Positions 15,957-42,932 of a stretch of DNA of 43,856 nt are shown here, one piece after another (the first letter of the stretch is position 1; the number at the start of each line of letters is the position of its first letter). The notes beneath the pieces are model-generated. The model saw only the letters and a program-made list of their open reading frames with translations. It did no database searches and was not told the origin of the DNA. Both the position numbers and the translations under genes were made by a program. This DNA is from an uncultured Gemmatimonadota bacterium (GTDB lineage Bacteria > GCA-2686955), in contig CAZBBK010000046.1 of NCBI GenBank assembly GCA_964490075.1, positions 1-43,856 of the forward strand, given 5' to 3'.

Positions 15957-15967
15957 GGAGAATCGTC

Positions 15968-24302: not shown

Positions 24303-24334
24303 GACAAAGCGTTACCAGTTCCGAGGAGATTCGC

Positions 24335-25246
24335 ATGCGTGTCCAACGTGTCGAGACAGCGGCCGGAATCAGACGGTCGGTCACAGGCCCCGGTGCCCGA
24401 GCGGCGCGGATCGTCGGCGTTCTACTGGTCGTGGCTCTGTCGCTCCTCCCGCGCGCGCGGGCCGAGAGCGCGGTGGAGGATTTCGAGAACCACTGCATGA
24501 GCTGCCACACCATCGGCGGCGGCCGTCTGACGGGTCCGGACCTGAAAGGCGTATTCGAGCGCCAGGACCGGGCGTGGCTGGCGCGCTTCATTCTCGACCC
24601 TCAGACCGTGCTCGACAGCGGCGATGCCTATGCGCTGGAGCTGCGCAACGAGGCGCGCGGAGTCGTGATGCCCGCGGTTCCCGGAATGACCCTGGAGCGC
24701 GCCAAGGCGCTGCTCGATCTGATCGAGGAAGAGTCGGCGCAGGAGCGCTCGAAGTTCGCGGGCATCCAGATGAGCGAGCGAGCCTTCACGGAAGTCGACG
24801 TGCGTATGGGCAGAGAGATCTTCCTCGGGACTCAGTCCCTGGCCAAAGGCGGCGCGGCGTGTGTCTCTTGCCACTCGGTCAACGGCATCGGCGTGTTGGC
24901 GGGAGGCAAGCTGGGACCGGATCTGAACGACGTCTACGGTCGGCTGAACGGACGCAAGGGCCTCGGGACCTGGCTCTCGGCGCCCGCGACCAGCACCATG
25001 CAGTCGATCTTCGCATCGCGCCCGCTGGATGGTGACAACGAAATCCTCCCCTTGCTCGCCTACTTTGCCGATCTGGCGCAGGATCCGCCGGAAAGCAGCC
25101 AGGCGGCCACGTTGATTTTCATACTGCTCGGCCTTGGGGGAACGGCGGCCGCCTTGATGATCTTCGACGGGGCATGGAAGGGACGCTTCAGAGGCGTGCG
25201 GAAGGCACTCATCGCGCAGAGCGGCGCACCGGTGGAGACCAGGTAG
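24335..25246 (+). CDS. narC: Membrane-anchored di-heme cytochrome c, NarC-like
   Basis: Signal peptide (..ARA-ES), two class I heme domains (CMSCH..GPDL, CVSCH..GPDL) and a C-terminal TM anchor. It ends 2 nt before narG, the arrangement known from Thermus narC. Confidence 0.8.
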
Positions 25247-25248
25247 CC

Positions 25249-28200
25249 ATGAGCAACAATCCTTGGATTCAAGACAGCGTTGATCCCGAGAGTCGATCTT
25301 GGGAGGAGTTCTACCGCAACCGCTGGCAGCACGACAAGATCGTGCGCAGCACCCACGGCGTGAACTGCACCGGCGGTTGTACCTGGCAGATTCACGTCAA
25401 GGACGGAATCGTCACCTGGGAAATGCAGGGGCTGGACTACCCGGAGATCGATCCGGAGATTCCACCCTACGAGCCGCGCGGTTGCCAGCGGGGCATCTCT
25501 TATTCGTGGTACCTCTACAGTCCCTTGCGCGTGAAGTACCCGTACATTCGCGGTGCTCTGGTGGACCTGTGGCGAAAGGCGCGCGCCGCCCACGCCGATC
25601 CGGTCGAGGCCTGGACTTCTCTGGTGAGCGACGGATCGGCGCGGGCCCGCTGGCATCGGGCGCGCGGCAAGGGGGGATTCCGCCGCACCAGCTGGGACGA
25701 GGTGCTGGAGCTGATCGCGGCATCGATGATCCACACGATCAAGACGCACGGTCCGGATCGCATCGCCGGCTTCTCGCCGATCCCCGCGATGTCGATGATC
25801 AGCTACGCATCGGGTGCGCGGATGCTGCAGTTGATGGGGGGCGTGGCGCTCTCGTTCTACGACTGGTATTGCGACCTGCCCTCGGCCTCGCCGGAAACCT
25901 GGGGCGAGCAGACCGACGTCAACGAATCGGCGGACTGGTACAACGCCAAGCTGTTGGCGGTCATGGGGTCGAACTTGAACATGACGCGCACGCCGGACTG
26001 TCACTTCGCGGCGGAGGCGCGCCACAACGGCACCAAGATGTACGTGTTCGCGCCGGACTTCAACCAGGTCGCGAAGTACGCCGACACCTGGCTGAGCGTC
26101 AACGCCGGACAGGACGGCGCCTGGTGGATGGCGGTCAATCACGTCATTCTGAAGGAGTTCCACCACGAGCGCGAGGTCGAGTCCTTCCAGAGCTACTTGA
26201 AGCAGTACAGCGACGCTCCGCACCTGGTGGAACTGGTGGAGGAGGAGGGGGTGCTGCGCCCCGGTCAGATGCTGCGGGCCGGCCGGATGGAGGGCTGCGA
26301 GGAGGTCGAGAACGGTGACTGGCAGTTCTTGTTCTGGGATCGCGGCGACGATCGTCCCAAGGTGCCTAGCGGCGCGGTCGGCTCGCGTTGGGCGGAGCAG
26401 AACAAGGGCAAGTGGAATCTGAAGCTCGAGGATATCCGCGACGGATCGCCCATCGATCCGGTGCTGACCTTCCTGGGGGCGGCGGACCAGGAGTGCCTGG
26501 TCACCTTCGACGACTTCGCTCAGGCGCGCCCCCTGCAGCGCGGTGTTCCGGCGCGGCGCATCACCACCGCCGCGGGCGAGCAGGTGCTGGTGGCGACGAT
26601 CTACGATCTGTTGATGGCGCAGTACGGAGTGCCGCGCGGGCTCGGCGGCGCTTACGGCGAGGGCTACGATGACGCCGACGCGCCCTATACGCCGGCCTGG
26701 CAGGAGCGCTACACCGGACTCGATCGCAAAGACCTGATCCAGTTCGCGCGCGAGTGGGCAGGGACCGCCGAGCACACCGGCGGCAAGTGCACCATCATCA
26801 TCGGCGCCGGGATCAACCACTGGTACCACGCCAATTTGATGTATCGAGCCGGCATTCATGCGCTGGTGCTCTGCGGCTGCGTCGGCAAGAACGGCGGCGG
26901 GCTGGCGCATTACGTGGGCCAGGAAAAGCTGGCGCCGGCCGAGTCGTGGGGCGCGATCGCGTTGGGCAAGGACTGGTACCCGGCGGCGCGGGTTCAGAAC
27001 GCGCCGAGCTGGCACTACGTCCACACCGACCAGTGGCGTTATGAGAAGTCGTTCACCGACTACCACACGGTTCCGCCGAACCAGAAGGAAGGATCGCTGG
27101 CTCGAGGCCACACCATGGATGCTCAGGTGCGCGCGGTGAAGAACGGCTGGCTGCCCTTCTACCCGCAGTTCACCGAGAGCAGCCTGGAAATCGTCGCCAA
27201 GGCCAAAGCGGACGGGGCGGCGGACGACGCCGCGGTGGTGCAGCACGCGCTGGCGCGCATCAAGAACGGCGATCTGAAATTCGCGATCGAGGATCCCGAC
27301 GCGCCCGAATGCTGGCCGCGGGTCTGGTTCATCTGGCGCGGCAACGCGCTGATGTCGAGCTCCAAGGGGCACGAGTACTTCCTGAAGCACTATCTCGGTA
27401 CGCACCACAACGCGATCGCCGACGAGATCGCCGGCGATGCGGTCGAAGAGGTCACCTATAGAGACATCGCGCCGGAAGGCAAGATGGACCTGGTGATCGA
27501 CCTCAACTTCCGCATGGATACTTCGGCGCTCTACTCCGACATCGTGCTGCCGGCGGCCACCTGGTACGAGAAAGCCGACCTCAACTCGACCGATATGCAC
27601 AGCTTCGTGCACCCGCTCTCCGAAGCGGTGCCGCCCTGCTGGGAGGCGAAGAGCGACTGGGCGATCTTCCGCGCCGTGGCCGAGCGCTTCTCGAAGCTCG
27701 CCGAGCGTCACTTTCCGGAGCAGGTCGACGACCTGGTGGCGGTGCCCCTGGCACACGATACGCCCGCGGAGATCGCGCAACCGCAGATCAGGGATTGGGC
27801 GAAGGGCGAAGTCGAGGCGATCCCGGGCAAAACGATGCCGGGCCTCAAGGTGGTCCGCCGCGACTACAAGAATCTCTATCGACAGTTCACCTCTCTTGGG
27901 CCACTTGTGCGTAGCAATGGGCTCGGCGCCCACGGCACCCACTACCACTGCGAGGAGTTCTACGACGAGCTCAGCGCGCGTTGCTCCACGACCTGGGACG
28001 GCAACACCTACCCTTCGATCGAGCGCGACGCTGACGTTTGCGACGCGGTGCTGCGGCTGGCGACGGTGTCGAACGGCGAGCTGGCGTTCCGCTCCTACAA
28101 GAACATGGAAGAGCGCGTGGGACTGCCCTTGGCGCACCTGGCCGAGAAGTCGCGCTCGGTGCGAATGTCCTACGACGACCTCCAGACCCGCCCGCATCGC

Positions 28201-28884
28201 TACCTGAGCAGCCCCATGTGGTCCGGCCTGATCGAGTACGGGCGCGCCTACTCCCCATACACCTACAACCACGATGCGCTGGTCCCCTGGCGCACTCTGA
28301 CCGGTCGCCAGCATCTCTACCTCGATCATCCTGGCTACTTGCAGTTCGGTGAGCATCTGCCCACCTACAAGCCCAAGCCGACGCCGCATCAGTATGCCGA
28401 TCTACGGGTCTCGGACGCGGTCGGCGAGACCATGATGCTCAACTACCTCACGCCCCACGGCAAGTGGCACATCCACTCGACCTACGGCGACAACCACCGA
28501 ATGACGACTCTGTCGCGAGGTTGCGAGCCCTTCTGGATGAACGACAAGGATGCGGAGCAGGTGGGGATCGTCGACAACGACTGGGTCGAAGTGCACAACG
28601 ACCACGGCGTGGTGGTCACTCGGGCCTGCGTCAGCGCGCGCATTCCGCGTGGAATCTGCATCATCTACCACTCGCCCGAGCGCACCTACGGTGTGCCGAA
28701 GTCGCCGCTCAGGGCGAACCGCCGCGGCGGCGGCCACAACAGTCTTACGCGAACCCGTCTCAAGCCCAACCTGATGATCGGGGGCTACGGGCAGTTCACC
28801 TACCACTTCAACTACTGGGGCCCGATCGGCTGCAACCGTGACACGCACGTCTATGTGCGCAAGTTGCCCGAGCTGCGCTGGTAA
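25249..28884 (+). CDS. narG: Respiratory nitrate reductase / nitrite oxidoreductase alpha subunit (Mo-bisPGD), cytoplasm-facing
   Basis: FS0 motif [10 protein letters not shown]...PRGC, Mo-ligand region [41 protein letters not shown]. No Tat signal. Start ATG 25249. Confidence 0.96.
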
Positions 28885-28913
28885 CGATTGGCGAAGCAAG
28901 GAAGGACAGAGAC

Positions 28914-30401
28914 ATGGACGTTCGCTCTCAGGTTTCCATGGTGTTCCACCTCGACAAGTGCATCGGTTGCCACACGTGCAGCGTCGCCTGCAAGAACGTG
29001 TGGACCGACCGCAAGGGCACCGAGTACATGTGGTGGAACAACGTCGAGACCAAGCCGGGCACCGGCTATCCGACCAAGTGGGAGGACCAGGAGAAGTACC
29101 GCGGCGGGTGGGTGCGCAATCCCGATCTGCAACTGCGCTCGACCAGCAAGGCACGCATCGTTCCCAACATCTTCCACAACCCCTCGATGCCCAGTCTCGA
29201 CGACTACTACGAACCCTGGACCTACGACTATCAAAATCTGTTCAACGCGCCCGAAGGCGACGACCAGCCGACCGCACGGCCGATCTCGATGGTCGACGGC
29301 AGACCGATCGACATCGAGGCCGGTCCGAACTGGGACGACGACCTGAGCGGATCCCCGATCTATGCCGAGAACGATCCCAACTTGACGGCGCTGACTCCCG
29401 AGCAGCGAGCTCAGCTCTTCGCCATCGAGCGCCTGGTCTTCTTCTACTTCCCGCGCATCTGTAATCACTGTCTCAATCCGGCATGTGTCGCCTCGTGCCC
29501 CTCGGGCGCGCTCTACAAGCGCGGTGAAGACGGGATCGTGCTGATCGATCAGAAGGTCTGTCGAGCGTGGCGCTCGTGCGTGGCGGCTTGCCCCTACAAG
29601 AAGACCTACTTCAATTGGCAGACCGGCAAGTCGGAGAAGTGCATTCTCTGCTTCCCGCGCGTGGAGACCGGCCAGGCTCCGGCCTGCTTCCATTCCTGCG
29701 TGGGGCGGATTCGCTACCTGGGCGTGCTGCTCTACGACGCCGACCGACTTCAGGATGTGGCGCGGAGCGACGACCAGGGGTTGGTCGAAGCGCATCGCTC
29801 GATGATTCTGAATCCCCACGACGACGAGGTGCAGCAGGCGGCGCGCGCGCAGGGGATGTCGGACGCGGTGCTCGATGCGGCGCGCCGCTCGCCGGTCTAC
29901 AAGTTCGTCAAGGAGTGGGGGCTGGCACTGCCCCCGCACTTGGAGTTCCGAACCCTGCCGATGCTCTTTTATGTGCCGCCCTTGCTGCCGGTGACCAGCA
30001 GCGAAGAAGAGGGCACGGTCTGCACCGACTCCGATGACTTCTTTCACGCCGTCGACAAGGCCAGGGTGCCGGTGGAGTATCTGGGCAACCTGCTGGGGGC
30101 GGGCAACAGCGGCGTGGTGAGCTATGCGCTGCGCAAGTTGATGGCGGTTCGCTATCACCGCCGGGCCCTGACTGTCGGCGACATCGCACCGGAGGTGGTC
30201 GAGCGGGTGCTGCGCGAAGCCGACTGCACAGCGGAGCAGGCGGAGCAGATCTACCGCCTCAGTACGATGGCGACGCTTCGCGACCGCTTCGTCTTCGCGC
30301 CGGCGCAGCGCGAGCAGGCGATCGAGATGCTCGCCGATCCCTTGGAGCACAAGCAGGCCGTCGGCTTCGGCTTCCTGCGTGGACCGCAGCGGGGGGCATG
30401 A
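28914..30401 (+). CDS. narH: Nitrate reductase beta subunit (Fe-S)
   Basis: LDKCIGCHTCSVACKNVW, CNHCLNPACVASC, CRAWRSCVAACPY, KCILCFPR...CFHSCVGRIRY. Confidence 0.97.
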   Translation: MDVRSQVSMVFHLDKCIGCHTCSVACKNVWTDRKGTEYMWWNNVETKPGTGYPTKWEDQEKYRGGWVRNPDLQLRSTSKARIVPNIFHNPSMPSLDDYYEPWTYDYQNLFNAPEGDDQPTARPISMVDGRPIDIEAGPNWDDDLSGSPIYAENDPNLTALTPEQRAQLFAIERLVFFYFPRICNHCLNPACVASCPSGALYKRGEDGIVLIDQKVCRAWRSCVAACPYKKTYFNWQTGKSEKCILCFPRVETGQAPACFHSCVGRIRYLGVLLYDADRLQDVARSDDQGLVEAHRSMILNPHDDEVQQAARAQGMSDAVLDAARRSPVYKFVKEWGLALPPHLEFRTLPMLFYVPPLLPVTSSEEEGTVCTDSDDFFHAVDKARVPVEYLGNLLGAGNSGVVSYALRKLMAVRYHRRALTVGDIAPEVVERVLREADCTAEQAEQIYRLSTMATLRDRFVFAPAQREQAIEMLADPLEHKQAVGFGFLRGPQRGA

Positions 30402-31033
30402 TGAACGACAAGATTGCCCTGCTGGACGCGCTCTCCGAGCTCTTCGAGTACCCCGGTGAGGGTTTCGCGGACGCGGTGGCCGCCTTCCGTGCGATCGCCG
30501 ACGGGCGGCGCCCTGGCTCCGGAGACCGCCTGGCGGATCTGGAGCGGCGGGCGAGGGGCATGAGCCGCGGCGAGGTCGAGGAGATGTTCACTCGCACCTT
30601 CGAGATCAACCCGGTCTGTGCGCTGGAGGTCGGCTGGCATGTCTACGGCGAGGAGTACGAGCGCGGGGCGCTGATGGTGCGGCTGCGCCAGGAGCTGCGC
30701 CGGCACGATGTCGCCGAGGGCAACGAGCTGCCCGACCATCTGACGCACGTCTTGCGCCTCCTGGGCCGACTGGATTCGGCACTGGCGGACGATCTGGCGG
30801 GTCGTTATGTGTTGCCCTCCCTCAGCAAGATGATCGATGCGCTGTCCGGCAAGGAATGCCCCTACGAAGGGCTGCTGCAGACCGCGCACGAGATTGTCGA
30901 CGCCGAGCACGACGCGATCGAGATCGCGCCGCAACGAAGGCGCAGTGATCCGCCGGGCTCGCTGCTGCCCTTCCCAATGACTCGACATCGGTCCGAGGGC
31001 CCTGCTTGCGGCCCGACGGGAGGATGCTCATGA
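30398..31033 (+). CDS. narJ: Nitrate reductase molybdenum cofactor assembly chaperone
   Basis: LFEYP, FTRTFE, ERGALMVRL, ELPDHL (TorD/NarJ motif). Lies between narH and narI with ATGA overlaps. Confidence 0.9.
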   Translation: MMNDKIALLDALSELFEYPGEGFADAVAAFRAIADGRRPGSGDRLADLERRARGMSRGEVEEMFTRTFEINPVCALEVGWHVYGEEYERGALMVRLRQELRRHDVAEGNELPDHLTHVLRLLGRLDSALADDLAGRYVLPSLSKMIDALSGKECPYEGLLQTAHEIVDAEHDAIEIAPQRRRSDPPGSLLPFPMTRHRSEGPACGPTGGCS

Positions 31034-31749
31034 GTCTGAGCAACGACATCCTGCACCACCTCGACACCTTCTTGTTCGGGGCGCTGCCCTATCTGTCGAT
31101 CACGATCTTCCTGGTCGTGACCATCCAGCGCTACCGCCAAGACACTTTCACCTACTCTAGCCTGTCGTCGCAGTTCCTGGAGAACCGCCAGCACTTCTGG
31201 GGCCTGGTGCCCTTTCACTACGGCTTGCTCACGGTGTTGGCCGGACACGTCGTCGCTTTCCTGATTCCACGCGCGATTCTGGCTTGGAATGGGGTGCCGC
31301 TTCGTCTCTACGTGCTGGAAGTGAGCGCGCTGATCTGTGGGCTGCTGACGGTGACGGGACTGGTGATGGCGATCGCCAGGCGCTTGAACAACACCAGAGT
31401 TCGCGGCGTGACTACCGCCTCGGACTGGGTGCTCTTCGCCATGCTCCTGTTTCAGATCATCACCGGGGTTCTGGTGGCGGTCTTCGTGGGCTGGGGGTCT
31501 TCCTGGTTCGCCGCGGCGGTCTCTCCCTACCTCTGGTCTCTGGTGAAATTCCAACCGGACTGGAGCTTCATCGTCGGCATGCCGTGGCTGGTGAAGCTGC
31601 ACATCGTTTCGGCGTTCGTGCTGATCGGATTCTTCCCCTTCACCCGGCTGGTGCACCTGCTGGTGATTCCAAATCAGTACTTGTGGCGCAGGACACAGAT
31701 CGTCCGCTGGTACGGATTTCGCGGAGCCACTCGAGGAAAAGCAACATGA
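31030..31749 (+). CDS. narI: Nitrate reductase gamma subunit (di-heme cytochrome b)
   Basis: Multi-TM protein with SSQFLE and four heme b His ligands in FHYG..LAGH and KLH...PFTRLVH. Start ATG 31030. Confidence 0.95.
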   Translation: MSLSNDILHHLDTFLFGALPYLSITIFLVVTIQRYRQDTFTYSSLSSQFLENRQHFWGLVPFHYGLLTVLAGHVVAFLIPRAILAWNGVPLRLYVLEVSALICGLLTVTGLVMAIARRLNNTRVRGVTTASDWVLFAMLLFQIITGVLVAVFVGWGSSWFAAAVSPYLWSLVKFQPDWSFIVGMPWLVKLHIVSAFVLIGFFPFTRLVHLLVIPNQYLWRRTQIVRWYGFRGATRGKAT

Positions 31750-33395
31750 CGAGCGCAACCAAGAACACGCGGGCTGTCCGCCTCTCCTACTGGGACGTCG
31801 AGGACGACGGCTTCTGGGAATCCGAAGGCAAGGGCATCGCCAATCGCAATTTGTGGATTTCGATCCCCAATCTGCTCTGCGGTTTCGCGGTGTGGCTGTA
31901 CTGGGGCATGGTGGCGAAGTTTATTCAGAGGGCCCACTTCGCCAATACCGAGCTCTTCGATTTCACCTTCATGAACGGCGGTCAACCGTATGAAGGCGAC
32001 GCCTATCGCAACCTGCTCTTCACGCTGCCGGCGGTAGCCGGTCTGGCGGGAGCGACGCTGCGCATTCCCAACTCATTCATGATCTCGATTTGCGGGGGTC
32101 GCAATGTCAAGTTCATGACCACCATGCTCTTGATGCTGCCGGCTCTGGGAGCCGGCATCGCCCTGCAAAACCCGGCGACACCCTTCTCGACCTATGTGTT
32201 GTTGGCGGCGCTGTCCGGAGTGGGAGGTGGAGCCTTCGCCTCGTCGATGTCCAACATCAGCTTCTTCTTCCCCAAGCGGATGCAGGGACTGGCCCTGGGC
32301 CTGAATGCCGGTCTCGGCAACGCCGGGGTCTCGGTGATGCAGTTTCTGCTGCCCTGGATCATCACTTTTGGCGCCTTCGGTGGATTCGGCGGCGAGCCCT
32401 ATCAGGTCGGCGACAGCGCGCTGTGGATTCAGAACGCGGGACTGGTGTGGGTGCCGATCACGGGCTTCCTGATGATCCTGGCGTTTCTGTTCATGAACAA
32501 CATGCCGCAGCACGACTGCGGGCCGACCGCGGCGGCGGTCGGCAAGTACCTGTGGCTGACCTTGCTCGGGTTCATCGGAGCCGGTGTCGGTGTGACTCTG
32601 CTGATCGTGCCCTGGGGCGGCTTTCCGGCGCTGCTGAAGATCTTCGTGATTCTGGTGGTCGCGGTGGTTGTGACGCTGCTGGCCATGAAGAAGCTCACAC
32701 CGAGCGCGGTCAAGGGGAAGCTCGATGCGCAGTTCGCCATTTTCGACAACAAGCACAACTGGATCATGACCTGGCTCTACACCATGACCTTCGGGTCGTT
32801 CATCGGCTACGCGAACGCTTTTCCGAAGCTGATCGATGACGTGTTCGGCGTGATCAGGGTCGGTGCCGATGGTTCGCCTTTGGCCGAGGCGATGATCAAT
32901 CCGAATGCACCTCTGTCGGCGTCCTATATCTGGATCGGCGCTGGTGTCGGCGCGTTGATCCGGCCCCTGGGAGGCTGGCTCTCGGACAAGCTCGGGGGCG
33001 CGCGAGTGACTCAGTGGGACACCGTGGTGATGATCGCGGCAACGATCGGAGCCGGCTATTTCGTGGCGCTGGCCAACCGCTCAGCGACGCCCGAGCAGTA
33101 CTTCTTGCCTTTCCTGTTCTTGTTCATCCTGCTCTTCGCCACCACCGGCATCGGCAACGGTTCGACCTTCCGCATGATTCCGATCATCTTCGAGAAGGAG
33201 CAGGCGGGACCGGTGCTCGGCTGGACTTCGGCGATCGCCGCTTACGGCGCCTATCTGATCCCGAGGATTTTCGGAGAGCAGATCAAGAGCGGCACGCCAG
33301 AGTACGCGCTCTACGGCTTCGCCGGATACTACGCCAGCTGTCTGATCGTGAACTGGTGGTTCTACGCCCGCAAGAACGCCGAAACCCCTTGCTGA
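31746..33395 (+). CDS. narK: Nitrate/nitrite MFS transporter, NarK2 (E. coli NarK/NarU-like) type
   Basis: WDVEDDGFW..NRNLWISIP, signature Arg in GATLRIP and ALIRPLGG, GGGAFASSM, TGIGNGSTFRMIP. Start ATG 31746 overlaps the narI stop. Confidence 0.92.
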   Translation: MTSATKNTRAVRLSYWDVEDDGFWESEGKGIANRNLWISIPNLLCGFAVWLYWGMVAKFIQRAHFANTELFDFTFMNGGQPYEGDAYRNLLFTLPAVAGLAGATLRIPNSFMISICGGRNVKFMTTMLLMLPALGAGIALQNPATPFSTYVLLAALSGVGGGAFASSMSNISFFFPKRMQGLALGLNAGLGNAGVSVMQFLLPWIITFGAFGGFGGEPYQVGDSALWIQNAGLVWVPITGFLMILAFLFMNNMPQHDCGPTAAAVGKYLWLTLLGFIGAGVGVTLLIVPWGGFPALLKIFVILVVAVVVTLLAMKKLTPSAVKGKLDAQFAIFDNKHNWIMTWLYTMTFGSFIGYANAFPKLIDDVFGVIRVGADGSPLAEAMINPNAPLSASYIWIGAGVGALIRPLGGWLSDKLGGARVTQWDTVVMIAATIGAGYFVALANRSATPEQYFLPFLFLFILLFATTGIGNGSTFRMIPIIFEKEQAGPVLGWTSAIAAYGAYLIPRIFGEQIKSGTPEYALYGFAGYYASCLIVNWWFYARKNAETPC

Positions 33396-33415
33396 GAGAT
33401 GGTTGAGGTCGCCGG

Positions 33416-34069
33416 ATGAACGGTCGTCTGTTCTCGACTCTGCTGATCTGCGGCATCGTGTTGGCGGGGATCTCGCTGGTGCGCGCCGGCGGTCGCCTGC
33501 AGCTGGCTGGAATCGATCAGGGCTATCAACCGGTGCAGCCGATCGCCTATTCCCATCGACTGCACGCAGGCGAGCTGGCCATTCCCTGTCTCTACTGCCA
33601 CAGCGGCGCCGAGAAGAGCCGCCGGGCGGGGATTCCCGCGGCCAGCATCTGCATGAACTGTCACCGCTTCGTGAGCGCGACGATGGGTGCAGTGCGCGCC
33701 GAGGAGAAGGCGGCTGACGAAGAGGGGCGCGAGCCGCGGAGCTTGGTCTCGCCCGAGCTGGCGAAGCTCTACCAGGCCCATGGACTCACCGAGAGCCTGC
33801 AGCCCGACCCGGGGCTGGAGGCGATGCCGATCGCCTGGAAGCGCGTTCACAGCCTGCCGGATTTTGCGGCCTTCGATCATCGGCCACACGTTGCGGCGGA
33901 GATCTCATGCATGAGCTGCCACGGCCCGATCGAGACCATGGACCGAGTGCGCCAGGAGGCGACGCTGAGCATGGGGTGGTGTGTTCGCTGCCATCGCGAG
34001 ACGACTCCCCGCACCGAGGCCGGCAGGCCGGTGGATCCCCCGCTCGACTGCGTCACATGCCACTACTGA
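33416..34069 (+). CDS. actA: Alternative complex III pentaheme cytochrome c subunit
   Basis: N-terminal TM, GYQPVQPIAYSHRLHAG, five CxxCH (CLYCH, CMNCH, CMSCH, CVRCH, CVTCH), WKRVHSLPDF, LSMGWC. Confidence 0.9.
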   Translation: MNGRLFSTLLICGIVLAGISLVRAGGRLQLAGIDQGYQPVQPIAYSHRLHAGELAIPCLYCHSGAEKSRRAGIPAASICMNCHRFVSATMGAVRAEEKAADEEGREPRSLVSPELAKLYQAHGLTESLQPDPGLEAMPIAWKRVHSLPDFAAFDHRPHVAAEISCMSCHGPIETMDRVRQEATLSMGWCVRCHRETTPRTEAGRPVDPPLDCVTCHY

Positions 34070-34085
34070 TCGATTGGAAGCGACG

Positions 34086-37000
34086 ATGAGTCAAGGCAGC
34101 AAAGGGTACTGGACCTCACCGGACCGGCGCGGGGCGGCGGACGGCGGCGTGAGCCCGGCGTCGGGAGAGTTCTCGGTGATGTCGGTGGGCGACCTGCCGG
34201 CCTTGCCGCGGCGCGACTTCCTGCGTCTGGCCGGATTCGCCGTGGGCGCGACCTCGCTGATCGGTTGCAGCCGTGGCAAGGAGCGCGAAGTCGCTCCCTA
34301 CCTGGTCGCCCCTGAGGAGGTGGTTCCCGGGCGCGCCTACTGGTACGCGACCGTGTGCGGGGCGTGTCCGGCGGGCTGCGGCGTGCTGGCCAAAGCGCTT
34401 GACGGTCGTCCGGTGAAGCTGGAAGGCAATCCGCAGCACCCTCTTTCGGCGGGCGGCATGTGCCCCATCGGGCAGGCCAGCGTGCTCTCCCTCTACGATT
34501 CTCAGCGACTGTTGGCACCGCTCCGCGACGGCAACGCGAGCGATTGGCCGTCGGTCGACGCCGAGCTGAGCGCGGCCTTCGAGCGCCTGGCGCAGGGCTC
34601 TGGTCGGGTGCGTTTCCTGGTCGATTCCACGACCGGTCCGACCGAGCGCAAGGCGATCGAGCGTTTTCTGGCGCGCTTCTCCGACGCACGGATGGTCACC
34701 TACGATCCGATCTCGCTGTCGGCGATCGCGGATGCCCACCAGGAGACACACGGTCTCCGAGCATTGCCGCGCTTCCGCCTGGAGCGGGCAGAGGTCATCG
34801 TATCCCTCGGCGCCGACTTCCTCGGGGGTTGGATCTCTCCGGTCGAGCACACCAAGGCCTACCAGGCGGGACGCCGTCTCGACCGCCACGAGGGGGACTT
34901 TTCGCAGCACATCCAGCTCGAATCGAGAATGTCGCTGAGCGGCAGCAACGCCGATCGGCGGATTTCGATCCCGCCGGGCACGAGCGCGACAATCCTGGCC
35001 CACCTGGTAGACCGTGTGGCCCGCCACGCCGGAACGGCGCCTCCCTGGCAGGCACTCCCCGCCGCGCCGATCGAGGGCAGGTTGATCGAGGACCTGGCTC
35101 GAGCCTTGCTGAGTGCGCACCGCGGCCACGCCGTGGTTCTCTGCGGAGACAACGATTCCGACGCACAGCGTCTGACGAACTGTCTCAACGAAATGCTGGG
35201 TGGCTACGACTCCGGCCATGGACGAGCGCTGATCGACCTGGCGCGGCCTTCGCGCCAGAGGATCGGCTCCGATGCCGATCTACTGACGCTCATGACCGAG
35301 CTCGAAGAGGGAGCGGTCGACGCGTTGGTCGTGCGCGGCGCCAACCCGGTCTTCGACCTTCCCTTCGGCCCCGTCTTCGCCGAGCGGCTGCGGAACCTCT
35401 CGTTGGTGGTCAGCATCGGCGAACGCGTTGACGAGACCGCCCAGCACGCACACTTCGTCTGCCCGGAGCCACACTTTCTGGAGAGCTGGGGAGACTCGGA
35501 GCCCGCGGCCGGCGTCGTCGCGCTGCGCCAGCCGGTGTTGCGCTCGATGGGTGCCACCCGACCGCTGCTCGAGAGCCTGGCCGCGTGGCGCGGTGAGCGA
35601 CGCAGCGCGCGCGACCAGATCCGCGACAGATGGTTCGCGGAGGTGTATCGAGGGGCACGCGATGCGGCGGGCTTCGAGGCGTTCTGGAACCAGACCCTGC
35701 ACGACGGCTGCGCCGAGTCCGAAGCGACGGACGAGCTCGCTGGAGAATTCAGGAAATCGGCTCTGAGCCCTTCGCCCTCCGCTGCGCCCGATGCCCCGGC
35801 GCTGCCGGCGGAGCTGGTAGCCGAGGTCTACTCGTCGCCGCAGGTGCTCGACGGCAGGCACGGCCACAATCCCTGGCTCCTCGAGCTTCCCGATCCAATC
35901 GCCAAGACGACCTGGAGCAACTGCGCAGCGTTGGCGCCCGCCACCGCTCGGTCGCTGGGCGTGGCGACCGGAGACGAGCTGGAGATCGAGGCCGACGGGG
36001 GCGCGAAACTGCTGCTGCCGGTCGTGGTGCAGCCCGGCCAACATGTCAGCGCGGTCTCGGTGGCGCTCGGATGGGGGCGCGCAGGCACAGAGCGCTTCGC
36101 CGGCGTGGGACCGCAGTGGCTGGAGGGCGAGGCGACGGTGGCTCCCGGCGAGCGCGTAGGGACCAACGCGGCACCCTTGATGGTGGCCGGGACCGACGGA
36201 ATCGCCTACAGCGGACTTCGAGTCAAGGTGCGCGCGACCGGAGTCAAGCGTTCCCTCGCTACCACCCAGCGACACCATACGCTTTTCGTTCCCGCAGGCC
36301 TCGCGCGGGCCGGCCACGAGCGGCGCCCGATCGTGCGTGAGACTACCCTCGGCGAACTGCGTCACGCCGTTCACGGTGCCGCGGAGCACACTCACCATGA
36401 ACATCCCAGCCTCTATGCGGAGCATCCCAAGTCGCCCCATCACTGGGGCATGGCGATCGATCTGAGCCGCTGCACTGGCTGCTCGGCCTGCGTGGTGTCG
36501 TGCCAGGCCGAGAACAACATTCCTGTGGTCGGTCGCGACGAAGTGTTCCGCTCGCGCGAGATGCACTGGATGCGCATCGATCGCTACTACTCTGGAGACG
36601 GCGACGAGGTCGAAGTGGTGCACATGCCGATGCTCTGCCAGCACTGCGACAACGCTCCCTGTGAAAACGTCTGCCCGGTGCAGGCCACCGTGCAGAGCGC
36701 CGAAGGGCTGAATCAACAGGTCTACAACCGCTGCGTAGGGACCCGCTACTGCGCCAACAACTGCCCCTACAAGGTGCGGCGTTTCAACTGGTTCGACTAC
36801 CCGCGCCAGGATCGTCTGCAGAATCTGGTGCTGAACCCGGATGTGACGGTTCGATCGCGCGGCGTCATGGAGAAGTGCAGCCTGTGCGTGCAGCGCATTC
36901 AGGAGGCCAAGGCGGCGGCGAAGATCGCCGGCAAGGCTCTCGATGATGGCGACATCACACCGGCCTGCGGGCAATCCTGCCCTGCGGGCGCGATAGTATT

Positions 37001-37157
37001 CGGAGATATGAACGATCCCGAGAGCCGCCTCTCCCGTCTCAAACAGGATCCGCGACACTACGCGGTTCTCGATGAGCTCGGGATCAAGCCGGTCGTTGGG
37101 TATCTGGCCAAGGTGAGGAATCGGACCGAGCCGGTGGGAACCGTGAACCATGTCTGA
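34086..37157 (+). CDS. actB: Alternative complex III ActB (Tat-exported molybdopterin-oxidoreductase-like domain fused to an Fe-S domain)
   Basis: KGYW..., Tat [37 protein letters not shown], and four Cys clusters ([39 protein letters not shown]...CGQSC). Confidence 0.92.
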
Positions 37158-38526
37158 AGCAAGCAGCGAGCTGCGCCGTCCGCTGGTCGACGGCAACAAG
37201 TCGCCGGCCGCGGTCACCGAGGATATCTGCCGGCCGCTGGAGGGCCGCGCGGGTGCCCTGTGGTGGATCGCTTTCGTGATTGCTGCGTCGGTGCTCGCCG
37301 TCGGCGTCGCGGCGGTCGCCTATCTCTTTGCCACCGGTGTCGGCGTGTGGGGGCTGAACCGCACCGTGGGCTGGGGATTCGACATCACCAATTTCGTCTT
37401 CTGGGTCGGCATCGGCCACGCCGGCACGTTGATCTCCGCGGTACTCTTTCTCTTCCGCCAGCGCTGGAGGACTGCCGTCAACCGCTCCGCGGAGGCGATG
37501 ACGATTTTCGCGGTGATGTGCGCCGGGCTCTTTCCTTTGATCCACATGGGACGCCCCTGGCTCGCCTTCTTCGTCTTCCCCTATCCGAACACTCGGGGCC
37601 CCCTGTGGATCAACTTCCGCTCCGCCCTGTGCTGGGATGTGTTCGCGATTTCTACCTACTTCTTGATTTCGCTCGGGTTCTGGTACATCGGCCTGGTTCC
37701 CGATCTGGCGACACTCAGAGACCGCGCGGCATCCAAGCTGAAGCGCGCGCTGTGCGGATTCTTCTCGCTGGGCTGGAACGGATCGACCAGAACCTGGCTG
37801 CGCTACGAAACCGTCTACCTGCTGCTGGCGGGACTGGCGACGCCGCTGGTGTTCTCGGTCCACACCATCGTCAGCATGGACTTCGCCACTTCGGTGATTC
37901 CCGGCTGGCACACCACGATCTTCCCGCCCTACTTCGTGTCGGGCGCGATCTTCTCCGGCCTGGCGATGGTGCTGACTCTGATGCTGATCGCGCGCAAGAC
38001 GATGCATCTGGAGGACTACATCACCACACGCCACGTGTCGGCGATGTGCAAACTGATCATCGCGACCGGCGGGATCGTCGCGACGGCCTACGGGACGGAG
38101 TTCTTCATCGCCTGGTACTCGGGGAACGACTACGAGCTCTTCGTGTTCCTGAATCGAGCGCTCGGTCCCTATGCCTGGGCCTACTGGACGATGGTCTCCT
38201 GCAATGTGCTGGTGCCGCAGCTGTTCTGGTTCAAAGCGGTGCGTGGGAACCTGATGTTGGTTTGGGTCCTGTCGATCTTCATCAACATCGGGATGTGGTT
38301 CGAGCGATTCGTAATCATCGTCACCTCACTGCACCGGGACTTCCTGCCGTCGAGCTGGACCTACTACGTGCCGACCAAGATCGAGATCGCGACGCTGGTG
38401 GGGAGCTTTGGGCTCTTCTTTAGCCTGTTCCTGATCTTCTGTCGCTTCCTGCCGGTCGTCGCCATCGCGGAGATCAAGGGGGTGCTCAGCTTTGGGCGGT
38501 CGAGCAAGACTGGAGGAGAGGCATGA
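37150..38526 (+). CDS. actC: Alternative complex III NrfD/PsrC-type quinol-binding subunit
   Basis: [77 protein letters not shown]. Confidence 0.95.
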
Positions 38527-39050
38527 ACCGAAGACTGGACGCGGTCTTCCAGAACGAAGGCGCAGTGCTCTCGGTGACCAGGGCGTGCCGGGAACGCGGC
38601 TACGAGATCATCGACGTCTATGCTCCCTATCCGGTCCATGGCTTGGACGCCGCCATGGGGCTGGAGCGATCGCGAATCCCGGTGGCGTGTTTTCTGCTGG
38701 GGATGGCGGGCGCCGCGGCGATGTTCTGGTTCCAGGTCTGGGCGTCGGCGATCGACTGGCCGGCGAACATCGGAGGCAAGCCGCTCAACTCGGCGCCGGC
38801 CTTCGTGCCGGTGACTTTCGAAACCGGAGTCCTGTGCGCCGGCCTCGGCACCATCCTGGTGCTGCTCATGGTCTGCCGGCTGCATCCCTTTCGGCGCGTG
38901 GAGCACGACGACGCGCGCTTGAGCGATGACCACTTTCTGGTCGCCATTCGACAGACCGATGCCGACCTGCATCCGGATATGGCGAAGGAGCTGTTCGAGG
39001 CCCACGGAGCGCTGGAGGTTCGAGAGGTGCCGCAGGAGGAAGGGCTATGA
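38523..39050 (+). CDS. actD: Alternative complex III ActD (DUF3341)
   Basis: [14 protein letters not shown], two TMs, [21 protein letters not shown]. Confidence 0.92.
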
Positions 39051-39631
39051 GAGGGGCCAGCGCAAGGAACATGGTGCTCTTCGCTGTGCTGGTACTGCTG
39101 GTGGCGGCGCACCGCGCCATGCCCAGCGATCCGACCAGGCGCAACCTGCATTTCATGCCGGAGATGGTGGACTCGCCGGCGTACGAGGCGCAGGCGCCGG
39201 CACCCGCGCTGCCTGGCGGTGGGCGGGTCGATCTGAGGCCGCCCGAGGGCAGCGTGGCACGGGGCTATCCGCCCTTTCCCTACCGGGCGACGGAGCAGGA
39301 CGCGCAGCGCGCCGGAGTGGAGCTGACGAATCCGGAGGCGGCCGGCGATCCGGCAGTGTTGGCGCGCGGCGCGGCGGTGTTCGCGAACTTCTGCGCGACT
39401 TGCCATGGCGCATCGGGGACCGGTGACGGACCGGTGACGCGCCGCGGAGTCCCCCCGCCACCCTCGCTCCTGAGCGACCACGCACGAGCGATGGCCGACG
39501 GCTACCTCTACCACATCATCAGCGTCGGCCGGCGCAACATGGCTGGCTACGCGGCGCAGATCGAGAGGCACGATCGATGGAAGGTCGTGAGCCATGTCAG
39601 ATCGTTGCAGCAGGCCACGGTGGCGAGATGA
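39047..39631 (+). CDS. actE: Alternative complex III monoheme cytochrome c subunit
   Basis: FMPEMVDSP, PPEGSVARG, LTNP, CATCHG..G.GDG, DGYLYHII..G..NM..YA.QI...DRW. Confidence 0.9.
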   Translation: MRGASARNMVLFAVLVLLVAAHRAMPSDPTRRNLHFMPEMVDSPAYEAQAPAPALPGGGRVDLRPPEGSVARGYPPFPYRATEQDAQRAGVELTNPEAAGDPAVLARGAAVFANFCATCHGASGTGDGPVTRRGVPPPPSLLSDHARAMADGYLYHIISVGRRNMAGYAAQIERHDRWKVVSHVRSLQQATVAR

Positions 39632-40833
39632 GCGTGACACCGACGGTGATCGAGCCCGAGACGATCCAGCGACACTTCGTCCCGGCGCCGGCGCTCACCA
39701 GGCGCCTGACGATCGCGGCGGTCCTGGCCGCGCTGGCGGCGCTGACCGGGATCCTCGCGGCGCCGGAGCGCACCTGGCCAGGGCTTCTGGTGGCAGCGGT
39801 CTACATGGCCGAGATCGGGCTCGGCGCGTTGCTCTTTCTGGCTACCCAGGCGGTCGCCAGCGGCGGCTGGTACGTCTGTTTCAAACGCGTACCGGAAGCG
39901 CTCGCCGCGACCCTCCCCTACGCCGGCGGCATTTTGCTGCTGACCATCGCCGGTGGTATGGGAACTCTCTACGAATGGTCACATGCCGATGTGATGGCTG
40001 CCGATCCCCTGCTCGGAAACAAGAGCGCCTGGCTCAACGTGCCCTTCTTCCTCGGCCGGACGGTGTTGGTGCTCGCGATCTGGACCGCCCTGGCGCTGGC
40101 GTTGGGCAGGGTGTCGCGACGGCAGGACGCGGAAGGCTCGCACGCGGGCAATCGCCGCACGGTGATACTGGGGGGGCTCTCTCTGGTGCTCATCGCGCCG
40201 ACCTTCTCGATGGCCGCCTTCGACTGGCTGATGTCGCTCGAAGCGCATTGGTTCAGCACGCTCTATGCCGGATATCACTTCGCGCGCACCCTGATCTGCG
40301 GTCTGGCGACGATCACCATTGCGGTGATTCTGCTGCGCCGGGAAGGAGTGCTGCGGGGGGTCGTGAGTGACGAGCATCTCCACGATCTGGGGAAGCTGAT
40401 GTTCGGGTTCACCTCGTTCTGGGCCTATCTCTGGTTCAGCCAGTACATGCTGATCTGGTATGGGAATCTCCCGGAAGAGGTTAGCCACTACCAAACGCGT
40501 CACGAGGGCGCCTGGGCGGTCGTCGCCGCGGCGAATGTGATCATCGGATGGGTCATCCCTTTCTTGATGTTGCTGCCCATGGCGGCGAAGCGCAGCGAAA
40601 GTCTGTTGCTGAAGGTCTCCGGACTGCTCCTGGTCGGCCATTGGGTCGATCTGTACCTCGCCGTCCAGGGCGCGCTCTCACCCGCGGCGCCTGCGCTAGG
40701 GATCTGGGAGCTGGTGACGATCGCCGGAGGCATCGCGGTGTTTCTGCTGGTCTTTCGGCGAGGTCTGGCGGCGACCGACCTGCTGCCGAGAGGTGACGCC
40801 TATCTGCGGGAGAGTCTCCACCATCATCAGTGA
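39628..40833 (+). CDS. actF: Alternative complex III membrane subunit ActF
   Basis: LYEWSH, KSAWLNVPFF, DWLMSLEAHWFST, HLHDLGKLMFGF..FWAYLWFSQYMLIWYGNLPEE. Confidence 0.93.
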   Translation: MSVTPTVIEPETIQRHFVPAPALTRRLTIAAVLAALAALTGILAAPERTWPGLLVAAVYMAEIGLGALLFLATQAVASGGWYVCFKRVPEALAATLPYAGGILLLTIAGGMGTLYEWSHADVMAADPLLGNKSAWLNVPFFLGRTVLVLAIWTALALALGRVSRRQDAEGSHAGNRRTVILGGLSLVLIAPTFSMAAFDWLMSLEAHWFSTLYAGYHFARTLICGLATITIAVILLRREGVLRGVVSDEHLHDLGKLMFGFTSFWAYLWFSQYMLIWYGNLPEEVSHYQTRHEGAWAVVAAANVIIGWVIPFLMLLPMAAKRSESLLLKVSGLLLVGHWVDLYLAVQGALSPAAPALGIWELVTIAGGIAVFLLVFRRGLAATDLLPRGDAYLRESLHHHQ

Positions 40834-40870
40834 TTCCCCGAGCTCACTGCCGCCCTATGGAGAAAGATCG

Positions 40871-42421
40871 ATGGCCGTACCGGATCTGATCGACGTCAGA
40901 CAAGAACGCATCCGCACTTTGCACTACACGTGGATCGCCTTCTTCGTGACCTTCTATGTGTGGTTCAACATGGCTCCTCTGGCCACCACCATGCTCAGCA
41001 GCATGGAGTGGCTGACCAGGGAGCACATCAAGGTACTGGCCATCTGCAACGTGGCCTTGACGATTCCTGCGCGCATCGTGATCGGGGCGCTGATCGATCG
41101 CTATGGACCGCGCATCGTCTTTTCTTCTCTGATGATCAGCATGTCGATACCGGCGCTCTTCTTCGCCTTTGGAAACAGCTTCATTCAGCTCTTGATCTCG
41201 CGGCTGGTGCTGGGATCGATCGGCGCCGGTTTCGTGATCGGCATTCGGATGGTGGCGCAGTGGTTTCCCAAGAGCATGGTCGGGCGTGCCGAGGGCTTCT
41301 ACGCCGGCTGGGGGAACTTCGGATCGGCTGCAGCGGCGATGACGCTGCCATGGATCGGCTTGACCTTCTTCGCCGATCAGCTCGGACTCGGCGAGGATGG
41401 ATGGCGTTGGGCGCTGGCCTTCAACGGACTGATCTCCCTGGTCTACGGCATCGCTTATCCCTTTCTGGTGCGCGACCTTCCCGGTGGAGAGAAGTTCCGC
41501 GGCACCGAGAAGACCGAGCCGATGACCGTGAGCTCGCAAGCCGACCTGGTTCGCTACCTGGCCTGGTCGTTCCCCCTGGTCGGCGCCATGGCGGTGCTCA
41601 CCTGGCGAATCAGCAACGTGATGGTCGCAGACCAGCCGCTGCTCTCGGGCGCTCCCTTGTACGCGATCTACGCGATCCTGGCGGCCGTCTACGTGGCCCA
41701 CGTCGCCAAGACATTGCAGGTAAACCTGCCGATCCTCAAGGCCGGCGTTCCGGAGAGCGAACGCTACCACTGGGGAAGTGTGGCCGCACTGAACAGCACC
41801 TACTTCGCCAACTTCGGGGCCGAGCTGGCTGTGGTATCGATGCTGCCGATGTTCTTCGAGACCACTTTCGCATCGCTGCGCGGAGCAGACGGTAGCTACC
41901 TCATGACGGCGACCTTGGCGGGGTTGATCGCATCGTCTTTCGCCTTCGTCAATCTCTTTGCGCGACCTCTGGGCGGCTTGCTCTCAGACACCATGAAGAA
42001 CAGAAAAGCGACCATGCTGGTGTACATGGCCGGCATCACTCTGGGCTTCCTGGGCATGGCCAACATCGGCACCTATGCCGATGGCGCTGCCGCCGATGCG
42101 GCCACCATCGTGCCGATGTTCGATGGATTCTGGTGGCTCGGAGTCGCCGTGGCCATCACGATTCTCTGCTCGGTCTTTGTGCAAGGAGCCGAGGGAGCGA
42201 CCTTCGCGATCATCCCGATGGTGAAGAAGGAAATGACGGGACAGATCGCTGGCATGGCCGGAGCCTACGGAAACGTGGGTGCTGTTTGCTACCTGGTGCT
42301 CTACTCTCTGGTGGACGCCAAGACCTTCTTCTACGCCATTGCCGTGGGCGCGTTTTTGAGCCTGATCTACTGCTGGATCGCACTCGAGGAGCCGAAAGAT
42401 GCGTTCTCTGAAGAGATTTGA
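40871..42421 (+). CDS. narK: Second nitrate/nitrite MFS transporter, NarK1/NrtP-like type
   Basis: LHYTWIAFFVTFYVWFNMAP, signature Arg in TIPARI and LFARPLGG, GWGNFGS, FGAELAVVSMLP, QGAEGATFA, GAYGNVG. Confidence 0.9.
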   Translation: MAVPDLIDVRQERIRTLHYTWIAFFVTFYVWFNMAPLATTMLSSMEWLTREHIKVLAICNVALTIPARIVIGALIDRYGPRIVFSSLMISMSIPALFFAFGNSFIQLLISRLVLGSIGAGFVIGIRMVAQWFPKSMVGRAEGFYAGWGNFGSAAAAMTLPWIGLTFFADQLGLGEDGWRWALAFNGLISLVYGIAYPFLVRDLPGGEKFRGTEKTEPMTVSSQADLVRYLAWSFPLVGAMAVLTWRISNVMVADQPLLSGAPLYAIYAILAAVYVAHVAKTLQVNLPILKAGVPESERYHWGSVAALNSTYFANFGAELAVVSMLPMFFETTFASLRGADGSYLMTATLAGLIASSFAFVNLFARPLGGLLSDTMKNRKATMLVYMAGITLGFLGMANIGTYADGAAADAATIVPMFDGFWWLGVAVAITILCSVFVQGAEGATFAIIPMVKKEMTGQIAGMAGAYGNVGAVCYLVLYSLVDAKTFFYAIAVGAFLSLIYCWIALEEPKDAFSEEI

Positions 42422-42431
42422 GCGAGGGATC

Positions 42432-42932
42432 ATGAGCAACAGATCGCCACTCGCAAGACTGATGCTGCTGGTTCCGCTCTGTTTCGCGGCGTGCGCACCG
42501 CCGGGTGCCTCCGATCCCGACATGGTGCATCTGTTGCTGCCGGAAGGCAATGCCGAGGCTGGCCGCAAGGCGCTCGCGGACCTGCGATGTGTCGCCTGTC
42601 ACACGGTTCGCGGAGAGGATGCGCTTGCCGAGCTCTCGAAGGGACAGCCGGGCCCGATGCTCGGGGGCAGCGAGATGGCGGGCCTCTCCCGCGGTGCTCT
42701 GGCGACCGCACTGATCGCGCCCGCCCACGTCAACGCGGAGGTCGTCGAACTGTGGACCGACTGGTCGGATCGACAACGCGTTTGGCTGGGACCGGGGCAC
42801 CAGTTCGACGGCGGTGCGCTCGACGCGGAGATGGAGCGATCGCGGATGCGCGACTACCGCTCGGTGATGACGGTGCAGCAGCTCTGCGATCTGGTCGCCT
42901 TTCTGCAGCAGGTGAGCGCGGCGCCCAAGTAG
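42432..42932 (+). CDS. Monoheme c-type cytochrome lipoprotein
   Basis: Lipobox-like FAAC after a basic/hydrophobic leader, LPEGNAEAGR...CVACH, distal Met in SRMRDY, then MTVQQLCDLVAFL. Starts 10 nt after the narK stop. Confidence 0.82.
   Translation: MSNRSPLARLMLLVPLCFAACAPPGASDPDMVHLLLPEGNAEAGRKALADLRCVACHTVRGEDALAELSKGQPGPMLGGSEMAGLSRGALATALIAPAHVNAEVVELWTDWSDRQRVWLGPGHQFDGGALDAEMERSRMRDYRSVMTVQQLCDLVAFLQQVSAAPK

Follow-up and report, generated by a model that had tools for sequence, protein, structure and literature searches.

Why would an operon for respiratory nitrate reductase hold every gene for alternative complex III (ACIII), itself a quinol-oxidizing complex? The question is raised by a 43,856-nucleotide stretch of DNA from an uncultured Gemmatimonadota bacterium (GenBank assembly GCA_964490075.1; genome G000 below, 5.7 Mb, 95.3% complete, 0.5% contamination), which is the entire contig CAZBBK010000046.1 (C46) and is referred to here as the window. 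On the forward strand, at 24335..42932, 14 intact open genes follow each other in the order narC-narGHJI-narK-actABCDEF-narK-cytochrome c. We find that this operon is real and widespread, a variant both of ACIII and of the NarC-type nar operon that has already been glimpsed in print, and that its ACIII probably serves the cell under nitrate-respiring conditions in one way or another. The genes are as follows.

24335..25246, forward: narC, di-haem cytochrome c of the Thermus NarC type (two CxxCH motifs, plasmid matches, hydropathy, alignment)
25249..28884, forward: narG, 1211 amino acids (TIGR01580 above cut-off)
28914..30401, forward: narH (TIGR01660 above cut-off)
30398..31033, forward: narJ, chaperone (PF02613; TIGR00684 at 56.5 bits, just below its cut-off of 59.35 bits)
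31030..31749, forward: narI, di-haem cytochrome b (NCBIfam profile above cut-off; four His ligands kept)
31746..33395, forward: first NarK-family nitrate/nitrite transporter (TIGR00886, E value 1e-77, below the NarK subfamily cut-off but strong)
33416..34069, forward: actA, penta-haem cytochrome c (five CxxCH motifs)
34086..37157, forward: actB, with a twin-arginine translocation (Tat) signal, a lipobox, a B1 domain and a B2 iron-sulfur domain (sequence and fold matches)
37150..38526, forward: actC, quinol-binding NrfD-type subunit (NrfD family; ACIII subunit C in the PDB)
38523..39050, forward: actD, with a conserved membrane Glu100 (PF11821 above cut-off)
39047..39631, forward: actE, mono-haem cytochrome c (one haem motif; N-terminal hydrophobic helix, without the lipobox cysteine)
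39628..40833, forward: actF, membrane subunit (position and tblastn)
40871..42421, forward: second NarK-family transporter (TIGR00886, E value 1e-86, just below the NarK subfamily cut-off, a strong match)
42399..42932 (second possible start at 42432), forward: mono-haem cytochrome c, probable lipoprotein (PF00034; one haem motif)

The genes are tightly packed and would be expected to form one transcript. Between ATG-started frames, the successive gaps are 2, 29, -4, -4, -4, 20, 16, -8, -4, -4, -4, 37, and -23 nt, with a 4-nt overlap at six junctions; the last junction, between the second narK and the cytochrome c gene, becomes +10 nt if the second cytochrome start is used. A terminator scan of the window returned 18 weak matches, eight of them on the forward strand, compared with 10.9 +/- 3.9 in shuffled sequences, and placed no candidate in the gaps between the 14 genes. 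The initial annotation of this DNA, made from the sequence, had described 14 co-directional genes with overlaps or gaps of at most 37 nt, no obvious internal terminator, and no haem-copper oxidase gene in the window; all three observations hold, and both oxidases of the genome lie on other contigs.

The arrangement recurs in distant bacteria. ActC relatives from GTDB genomes were sampled as the best 80 of at least 599, with 10-kb flanks, and the clade counts given here come from this sample. The 17 closest sequences (at least 69% identical) have narGHJI upstream in 13 cases; the other four loci are truncated, two of them showing narK only and two being too short, and an oxidase match was found in none of the 17 loci, nine of which extend at least 9 kb downstream of actC. 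By contrast, the other 63 (at most 66% identical) have nar genes in no case and oxidase genes in 39. In a FastTree phylogeny of 81 rows, the 17 relatives and the ActC of the window form a single branch (SH support 99), sister to the Bacteroidota-type ACIII, and a quick IQ-TREE analysis of 37 chosen rows (14 nar-linked sequences, seven second copies or their kin, and 16 others) recovered the same branch, with the second copies falling outside it. Rather than grouping with oxidase-linked ACIII, these proteins have nar-linked relatives in a clade of their own, with hosts labelled Planctomycetota, Acidobacteriota, Bacteroidota, Ignavibacteriota, Myxococcota, and Ca. Zhuqueibacter; no cultured carrier of the operon was identified.

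The host genomes suggest a division of labour. A second ActC, 41-63% identical, is present in 12 of the 15 host genomes searched (out of 17), and 11 of these 12 copies lie within 10 kb of a COX1-family gene; such oxidase-linked second copies constitute the best evidence for a putative partition of tasks between ACIIIs. The nitrate-dedicated ACIII proposed in the initial annotation is thus upheld insofar as a genuine ACIII is tied to nitrate respiration through a nar-linked clade spanning several phyla. The word dedicated fits the relatives that carry a second ACIII, but less so G000, in which this is the only ACIII (no second one was found in the genome) alongside aa3 and cbb3 oxidases. The enclosure of the act genes by two narK genes, also emphasized in that annotation, is present here but proves to be local: in relatives, narK lies between narI and actA, after actF, or before narC, or is absent from the locus. 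As judged from the relatives, the conserved core is narCGHJI-(narK)-actABCDEF. No genes are conserved after actF in relatives, except sometimes narK, and the terminal cytochrome c, without a tblastn match in the 80 ActC-sampled loci or in the 84 loci of a NarI-based set, lies outside the core.

Could the linkage be an assembly artefact? Of the 60 genomes returned by a search for relatives, only four were family or class kin, and three share the family of G000. A member of the same family (G018) carries narGHJI-actABCDEF on a single contig, with NarH 88% and ActC 89% identical, and in another genome (G017) narI directly abuts actA. Each of the 30 bins of the window is covered in four DNA runs from a single study, and single contigs of run X1, possibly the source of the assembly, span the narI-narK, narK-actA, and actF-narK-cytochrome c junctions. 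A chimera is ruled out by these layouts, the read coverage, and the junction-spanning contigs, and the nar-act linkage, shared with G018, G017, and other relatives, is not peculiar to this assembly.

In line with the complete ACIII called in the initial annotation, all six act products could be assigned to subunits. The best PDB matches of ActC are ACIII subunits C (E values 1e-185 to 1e-147); ActB matches solved ActB proteins in sequence, and the five best Foldseek matches of its model are all ACIII ActB. ActF, which has no Pfam or NCBIfam match, is identified by its position and by tblastn matches in the same slot in 71 of the 80 ACIII loci. In Rhodothermus marinus, the quinol site and proton path involve ActC His139/Asp169/Asp253 and Glu394/Arg395 and ActD Glu122 (Sousa et al., PMC5928083). 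ActC H132, D163, D244, E385, and R386 are invariant in all 31 clade sequences, as is ActD Glu100, the equivalent of R. marinus Glu122. Haem counts are also conserved within the clade (five in 14/14 ActA, one in 15/15 ActE), and an RRxF..C Tat/lipobox pattern is found in 30 of 32 ActB sequences. Overall, the ACIII half looks catalytically complete.

This identification bears on a published reading of the cluster. Suarez et al. (2023) described nar genes upstream of a six-gene NrfD cluster in 13 instances and, finding that it matched no described complex, proposed that it might act in respiration or as a nitrite reductase resembling NrfAH (PMC10732223). A new nitrite reductase of this kind, to which the position of the cluster behind nar would lend itself, appears extremely unlikely given that all six genes map to ActA-F, that ActC and ActB match solved ACIII subunits, that ActA has five CxxCH motifs and no CxxCK, and that an NrfA-like query found no match in the genome.

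One feature sets the ActB of this clade apart from the solved structures. Its B1 domain carries a CxxCxxxC-x27-C motif of the FS0 type (C91, C94, C98, and C126) that is largely conserved in the clade (C94 in 32/32, C98 and C126 in 31/32, C91 in 26/32, with Ser in six close relatives) and aligns with the N-terminal cysteine motif of PsrA. Because the four FS0-type cysteines are present, ActB1 is predicted to bind an extra iron-sulfur cluster. As a unique marker of the nar-linked clade, the motif was rejected, being carried by 6 of 49 other ActB, three of them oxidase-linked. No live molybdenum site is predicted: B1 aligns end to end with cofactor-free ActB and is without the basic residue found in PsrA two places after the fourth cysteine. 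In R. marinus, domain B1 holds no prosthetic group, and it has been suggested that electrons pass between the [4Fe-4S] wire of ActB and an external carrier, the role of this wire still being called elusive (PMC5928083).

As separate observations, FS0-type motifs occur in Ignavibacteria/Bacteroidota ActB outside the clade (loci L013, L078, L080, L114, L024, L026, and L034), and the oxidase-linked ActB of L013, L078, and L080 have a Lys two residues after the fourth Cys. In loci L029, L033, L035, L042, L054, and L109, actC-actD-actF are followed by genes for an aa3 oxidase, and neither actA nor actB nor actE is adjacent.

The extra motif also invites a reading in which the complex runs backward, in the manner of Qrc: periplasmic low-potential donors would reduce ACIII, perhaps via the FS0-type cluster or ActA, ACIII would reduce menaquinone, and NarI would reoxidize it in a redox loop. 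The alignment of the clade cysteines with PsrA, the proposed exchange through the ActB wire, the homology to Qrc, a cytochrome c:menaquinone oxidoreductase (PMC8076601), and the dsr genes and molybdoenzyme-NrfD modules of the host are all compatible with such a use. Nevertheless, ActC is far closer to quinol-oxidizing ACIII (E value 1e-185) than to QrcD (2e-6 only), with all Qrc models far below cut-off, and is sister to the Bacteroidota-type ACIII; the occurrence of the FS0 motif in other ActB, including oxidase-linked ones, and the lack of a conserved donor enzyme in the operon also make this direction unlikely.

The nar half is closest to that of Thermus. NarC has two CxxCH motifs and, as judged from hydropathy, a signal peptide and a C-terminal membrane anchor; its best plasmid matches are the genes preceding narG in Thermus nar operons, and it is 31% identical to Thermus NarC. 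It precedes narG in all four genomes examined and in 16 of the 17 metagenome loci whose upstream sequence reaches at least 7.5 kb. NarG shares 61% identity with its Thermus counterpart and at most 49% with the other plasmid records among the 30 listed of 429, and is without a twin-arginine signal; the Nar encoded here is, by these features, a cytoplasmic enzyme of the Thermus type. NarI retains the four haem His residues and, as in Thermus, has Arg in place of Escherichia coli K86, which we take to be a quinol-site residue (a literature search did not confirm this), and Glu in place of M91. Thermus NarC binds NarI and is needed for maturation (PMC7694296, PMC10609526), and a Nitrobacter homologue hands electrons between NarI and NarC (PMC7694296).

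The Nitrobacter case raises the question of whether the enzyme might oxidize nitrite, with NarC delivering electrons to the oxidases and ACIII driven uphill to make quinol. Nitrobacter does have a very similar narC-type cluster acting as a cytoplasmic NXR (PMC7694296), oxidases are present in G000, and direction cannot be read from sequence (PMC10732223). We consider this very improbable: RuBisCO was not found in the genome (other fixation routes were not searched), the closest characterized NarG is the Thermus nitrate reductase, and relatives have NO-stress genes in or next to the operon.

How, then, might the two halves work together? The reading that we favour, tentatively and as something close to an even proposition, is wiring in series, from quinol through ACIII and NarC to NarI and NarGH. 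The operon would constitute one inherited module for nitrate respiration when oxygen is scarce, made up of an external NarC, a membrane-bound NarI, a cytoplasmic NarGH, NarK as nitrate/nitrite exchanger, and a dedicated ACIII lineage. Menaquinol would be oxidized by ActC at a periplasmic site; electrons would pass via the [3Fe-4S] cluster of ActB, ActA, and ActE to the di-haem NarC, which would stand in for the cytochrome c domain of the oxidase in aerobic ACIII chains, and from there through the two NarI haems to NarH and then NarG. Direct quinol oxidation by NarI would probably persist as a bypass. A large part of the gap of roughly 0.5 V that separates menaquinol from nitrate (about +420 mV) goes unused in textbook NarGHI. 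By our estimate, the whole gap could, at normal proton-motive force, drive the movement of about five charges per two electrons. Direct turnover of NarI accounts for two, and the addition of ACIII pumping to the membrane crossing in NarI could give about four per nitrate.

The series wiring is favoured by NarC being the sole periplasmic acceptor conserved in the operon, by the second ACIII that usually takes on oxidase duty, and by a precedent for NarGHI tied to a complex III: Nar1 of Streptomyces relies on the bcc-aa3 supercomplex and is purified together with it (PMC7931247). Also in its favour are the nar-linked ActC clade, the co-variation of Nar and Act distances given below, narI abutting actA in G017, the NO-stress gene RIC inside the operon in L169 and L184, the NarC-NarI contacts of Thermus and Nitrobacter, and the lack of NirS, NirK, NorB, NosZ, and NrfA in G000 as other takers of the electrons. 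Prediction of a complex of ActA and ActE with NarC gave a score of 0.00 twice, with controls not folded, and was counted neither way. A bolder proposal, which we regard as possible but rather doubtful, is that the module is a nitrate-respiring counterpart of the ACIII-oxidase supercomplex, in which an ACIII with a fifth ActB1 cluster docks on NarCGHI, feeds it via NarC, separates approximately twice as many charges per nitrate as the redox loop of E. coli does, and has spread across phyla as one module.

Several points weigh against wiring in series. The haems of E. coli NarI lie at about +20 and +120 mV. Given +165 mV for R. marinus ActE (and -70 mV for menaquinol; PMC5928083), the hand-over to NarI would be uphill unless the potentials are shifted, and the flow proposed in Thermus is in the opposite direction, outward from NarI to NarC (PMC7694296). 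In NarI, His66 and a basic residue at position 86 are kept in 48/48 sequences, with or without ACIII, and three columns only weakly, and none convincingly, separate ACIII-linked from ACIII-free loci among these 48. With its quinol-site residues kept and no diagnostic change, NarI probably still oxidizes quinol itself. In addition, the aa3 and cbb3 oxidases of G000, on other contigs and with no ACIII beside either, could also be served by this ACIII.

The reverse survey, starting from NarI (the best 80 of 96 metagenome relatives), bears on both sides of the question. Act genes follow in 17 of the 24 metagenome loci that extend at least 4 kb downstream (18/26 with two genome loci), that is, in 17/21 at 52% identity or more and 0/3 below 50%; seven of the 24 (4/21 at 52% or more) represent the same NarC-NarI lineage without ACIII, a point against the series wiring. 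Downstream of ACIII-free nar loci, only MFS transporters, an alginate-export-type barrel, and a SLAC1 channel were found, and none of the four such loci examined had a replacement quinol:cytochrome c complex of the bc or NrfD type. The NarI tree contains a 45-row branch (support 100) with all 39 ACIII-linked sequences and six ACIII-free ones, five of which are nested inside, suggesting losses of ACIII; ACIII is optional for this NarC-type Nar. Among the ACIII-linked metagenome loci, six are closely related and not independent. The comparison of Nar and Act for co-inheritance, proposed in the initial annotation together with the genome search reported above, showed that distances co-vary across 26 operons (NarH-ActC 0.43, ActB-ActC 0.47, NarH-NarI 0.63; Mantel p 0.001), correlations that carry no host-gene control and include several loci that are close kin. 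As a side observation, in the ACIII-free nar operons of L129 and L165 the alginate-export-type outer-membrane barrel gene directly follows narI, in place of narK/actA.

These distributions could also reflect hitch-hiking, an ACIII operon having landed behind nar once and travelled along without functional coupling. One origin would suffice to account for the clade, and part of the Nar lineage has no ACIII, but we find this very improbable in view of the retention of six act genes and invariant catalytic residues across phyla at about 70% ActC and 50% ActB identity, the movement of narK genes around act, and the hosts that keep a nar-linked ACIII beside a second one.

A more substantial alternative, yet still an unlikely one, is a parallel branch in which NarI oxidizes quinol as usual and ACIII acts as a low-oxygen quinol:cytochrome c oxidoreductase for other sinks, such as nitrite, NO, and N2O reductases, an octahaem nitrite reductase, a cbb3 oxidase, or peroxidases. 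It would account for the kept quinol-site residues of NarI, for nrfHA-like genes about 4.6 kb after actF in L005, and for the cbb3 and aa3 oxidases without adjacent ACIII and the octahaem HAO-like protein of G000; in Thermus, the bc complex is repressed under nitrate and a substitute is needed (PMC7694296). Against it, NirS, NirK, NorB, NosZ, and NrfA were not found in this 95.3% complete genome, leaving no canonical denitrification target for ACIII and disfavouring the suggestion in the initial annotation that it feeds nitrite, NO, or N2O reductases encoded elsewhere. An NrfD-type module of its own accompanies the octahaem protein, an oxidase-linked ACIII is already present in most hosts, and no downstream reductase is conserved beside the operon.

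Other respiratory genes of the host are observations in their own right. The octahaem module, on contig C47 at about 8000-15800 (L085), comprises a Rnf/Nqr-type gene, ApbE, the octahaem HAO-like cytochrome, a tetrahaem protein, an iron-sulfur protein, and NrfD, and is a candidate quinol-fed nitrite or sulfur-compound reductase. Loci L087, L092, and L200, on contigs C8 (about 42500-57400) and C11 (about 59500-66900), carry dsrA, dsrMKJOP-like, and dsrC genes, along with a Rieske/cytochrome b/subunit IV set that has dsrC and dsrMK-like genes immediately behind it; the dsrA match holds one TAG stop. The combination of sulfur, nitrate, and oxygen genes in one host is unusual.

The region upstream of narC is probably regulatory.

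20484..22667, forward: sensor histidine kinase, HAMP-PAS (family profile matches; also 5' of narC in G017 and L181)
22664..24097, forward: NtrC-type response regulator with GAIPGA for GAFTGA (family profile matches)
24098..24334, forward: promoter region containing the inverted repeat TGCATA..TATGCA and a weak TTGAAG-17-TAACTT pair (in part kept in G017 and L181)

The sensor kinase is a probable regulator of the operon. The GAFTGA motif has a role in sigma-54 activation; with its degenerate loop (GALPGA in G017), the response regulator is therefore probably sigma-54 independent, and no sigma-54 consensus was found upstream of narC. It is possibly a sigma-70-type activator of the operon. The sigma-70 promoter scan returned 0 sites, the TTGAAG-17-TAACTT pair falling below its threshold. 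A hemerythrin-like (HHE) gene at 19788-20342 on the reverse strand diverges from the sensor kinase gene. In relatives, RIC/ScdA, hemerythrin, and Rrf2 genes are found within the operon or next to it (L169, L184, and L005), with the NO-stress gene RIC inside it in L169 and L184; these neighbours point to putative NO or oxygen sensing. Elsewhere in the window, a lower-GC stretch at 12762-17941 holds two long open reading frames (834 and 662 amino acids) with no Pfam or NCBIfam match, followed by apparent transposase remnants near 19185-19514, and a fragment of an IS21-family transposase lies at the contig end, immediately after the operon (about 43200-43670, reverse strand).

The significance of the operon lies in the prospect of an anaerobic job for ACIII. 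A recent survey treats ActB as exclusively aerobic (PMC10100899), and a conserved ACIII in nar operons would depart from that view, possibly allowing uncultured bacteria of sediment, soil, and the subsurface to respire nitrate at a higher yield. The FS0-type motif would extend the [4Fe-4S] wire of ActB and offers a concrete handle on the role of this wire. As to precedent, the initial annotation could recall no characterized operon of this layout; the arrangement is already in print (PMC10732223), where the text available to us does not recognize it as ACIII, and the identification made here corrects its reading as a possible new nitrite reductase. The literature search found no paper that names the nar-linked cluster as ACIII or tests it; most subscription journals lay outside the search, including the ACIII surveys of Refojo and Yanyushin, so an earlier mention of the layout or the cysteine motif is possible. 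The layout is not described in the text available from PMC13608581, PMC5317091, PMC3903129, PMC6303296, and PMC6995999.

The operon can be compared with several known systems. The same arrangement is seen in the cluster of Suarez et al. in Planctomycetota and KSB1 metagenome-assembled genomes (MAGs), among which OFTM153 shares the layout of the window as far as actF: its supplementary entry lists a 2-haem gene, narG, H, J, and I, two NarK, a 5-haem cytochrome, a PF04879-bearing iron-sulfur protein, NrfD, DUF3341, a mono-haem cytochrome, and a membrane protein, with the difference that both NarK genes precede actA. Five of the Suarez instances have oxygen reductase genes downstream, unlike the 17 clade loci, and may be ordinary ACIII; ACIII, NarC, the clade, and the extra cluster motif are not identified in the available text (PMC10732223). 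The narCGHJIKT operon of Thermus thermophilus shares the narC-G-H-J-I-K order and the NarI substitutions, but no act genes follow it within 12 kb, and NarC is proposed there to take the place of complex III in serving NirS and Nor (PMC7694296, PMC10609526), whereas the operon of the window has a complex III built in.

The Nar1-bcc-aa3 association of Streptomyces coelicolor resembles the proposed wiring in that NarGHI depends on a co-purifying complex III; it differs in that the complex is of the bc type rather than ACIII and that the abstract mentions neither NarC nor a shared operon (PMC7931247). The QrcABCD complex of sulfate reducers has homologous multihaem, molybdoenzyme-like, iron-sulfur, and NrfD modules, but consists of four subunits and reduces menaquinone, whereas in the window B1 and B2 are fused and ActD, ActE, and ActF are present. 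With the solved ACIII of Flavobacterium johnsoniae (6BTM), R. marinus (6F0K), and phototrophs (6LOD, 8K9E), the act genes share the canonical ActA-F order, the penta-haem ActA, the mono-haem ActE, the Tat/lipoprotein ActB, the ActC residues, and the ActD glutamate. They differ in following narI/narK without an adjacent oxidase, in the four FS0-type cysteines of ActB1, missing from all four solved ActB, in a clade-specific ActA insertion around residues 96-100, whose marker columns are gaps in 44/44 ActA from outside the clade, and in an ActE that mostly has an N-terminal helix instead of a lipobox (lipobox in 2/26 clade versus 17/45 other sequences by a crude pattern).

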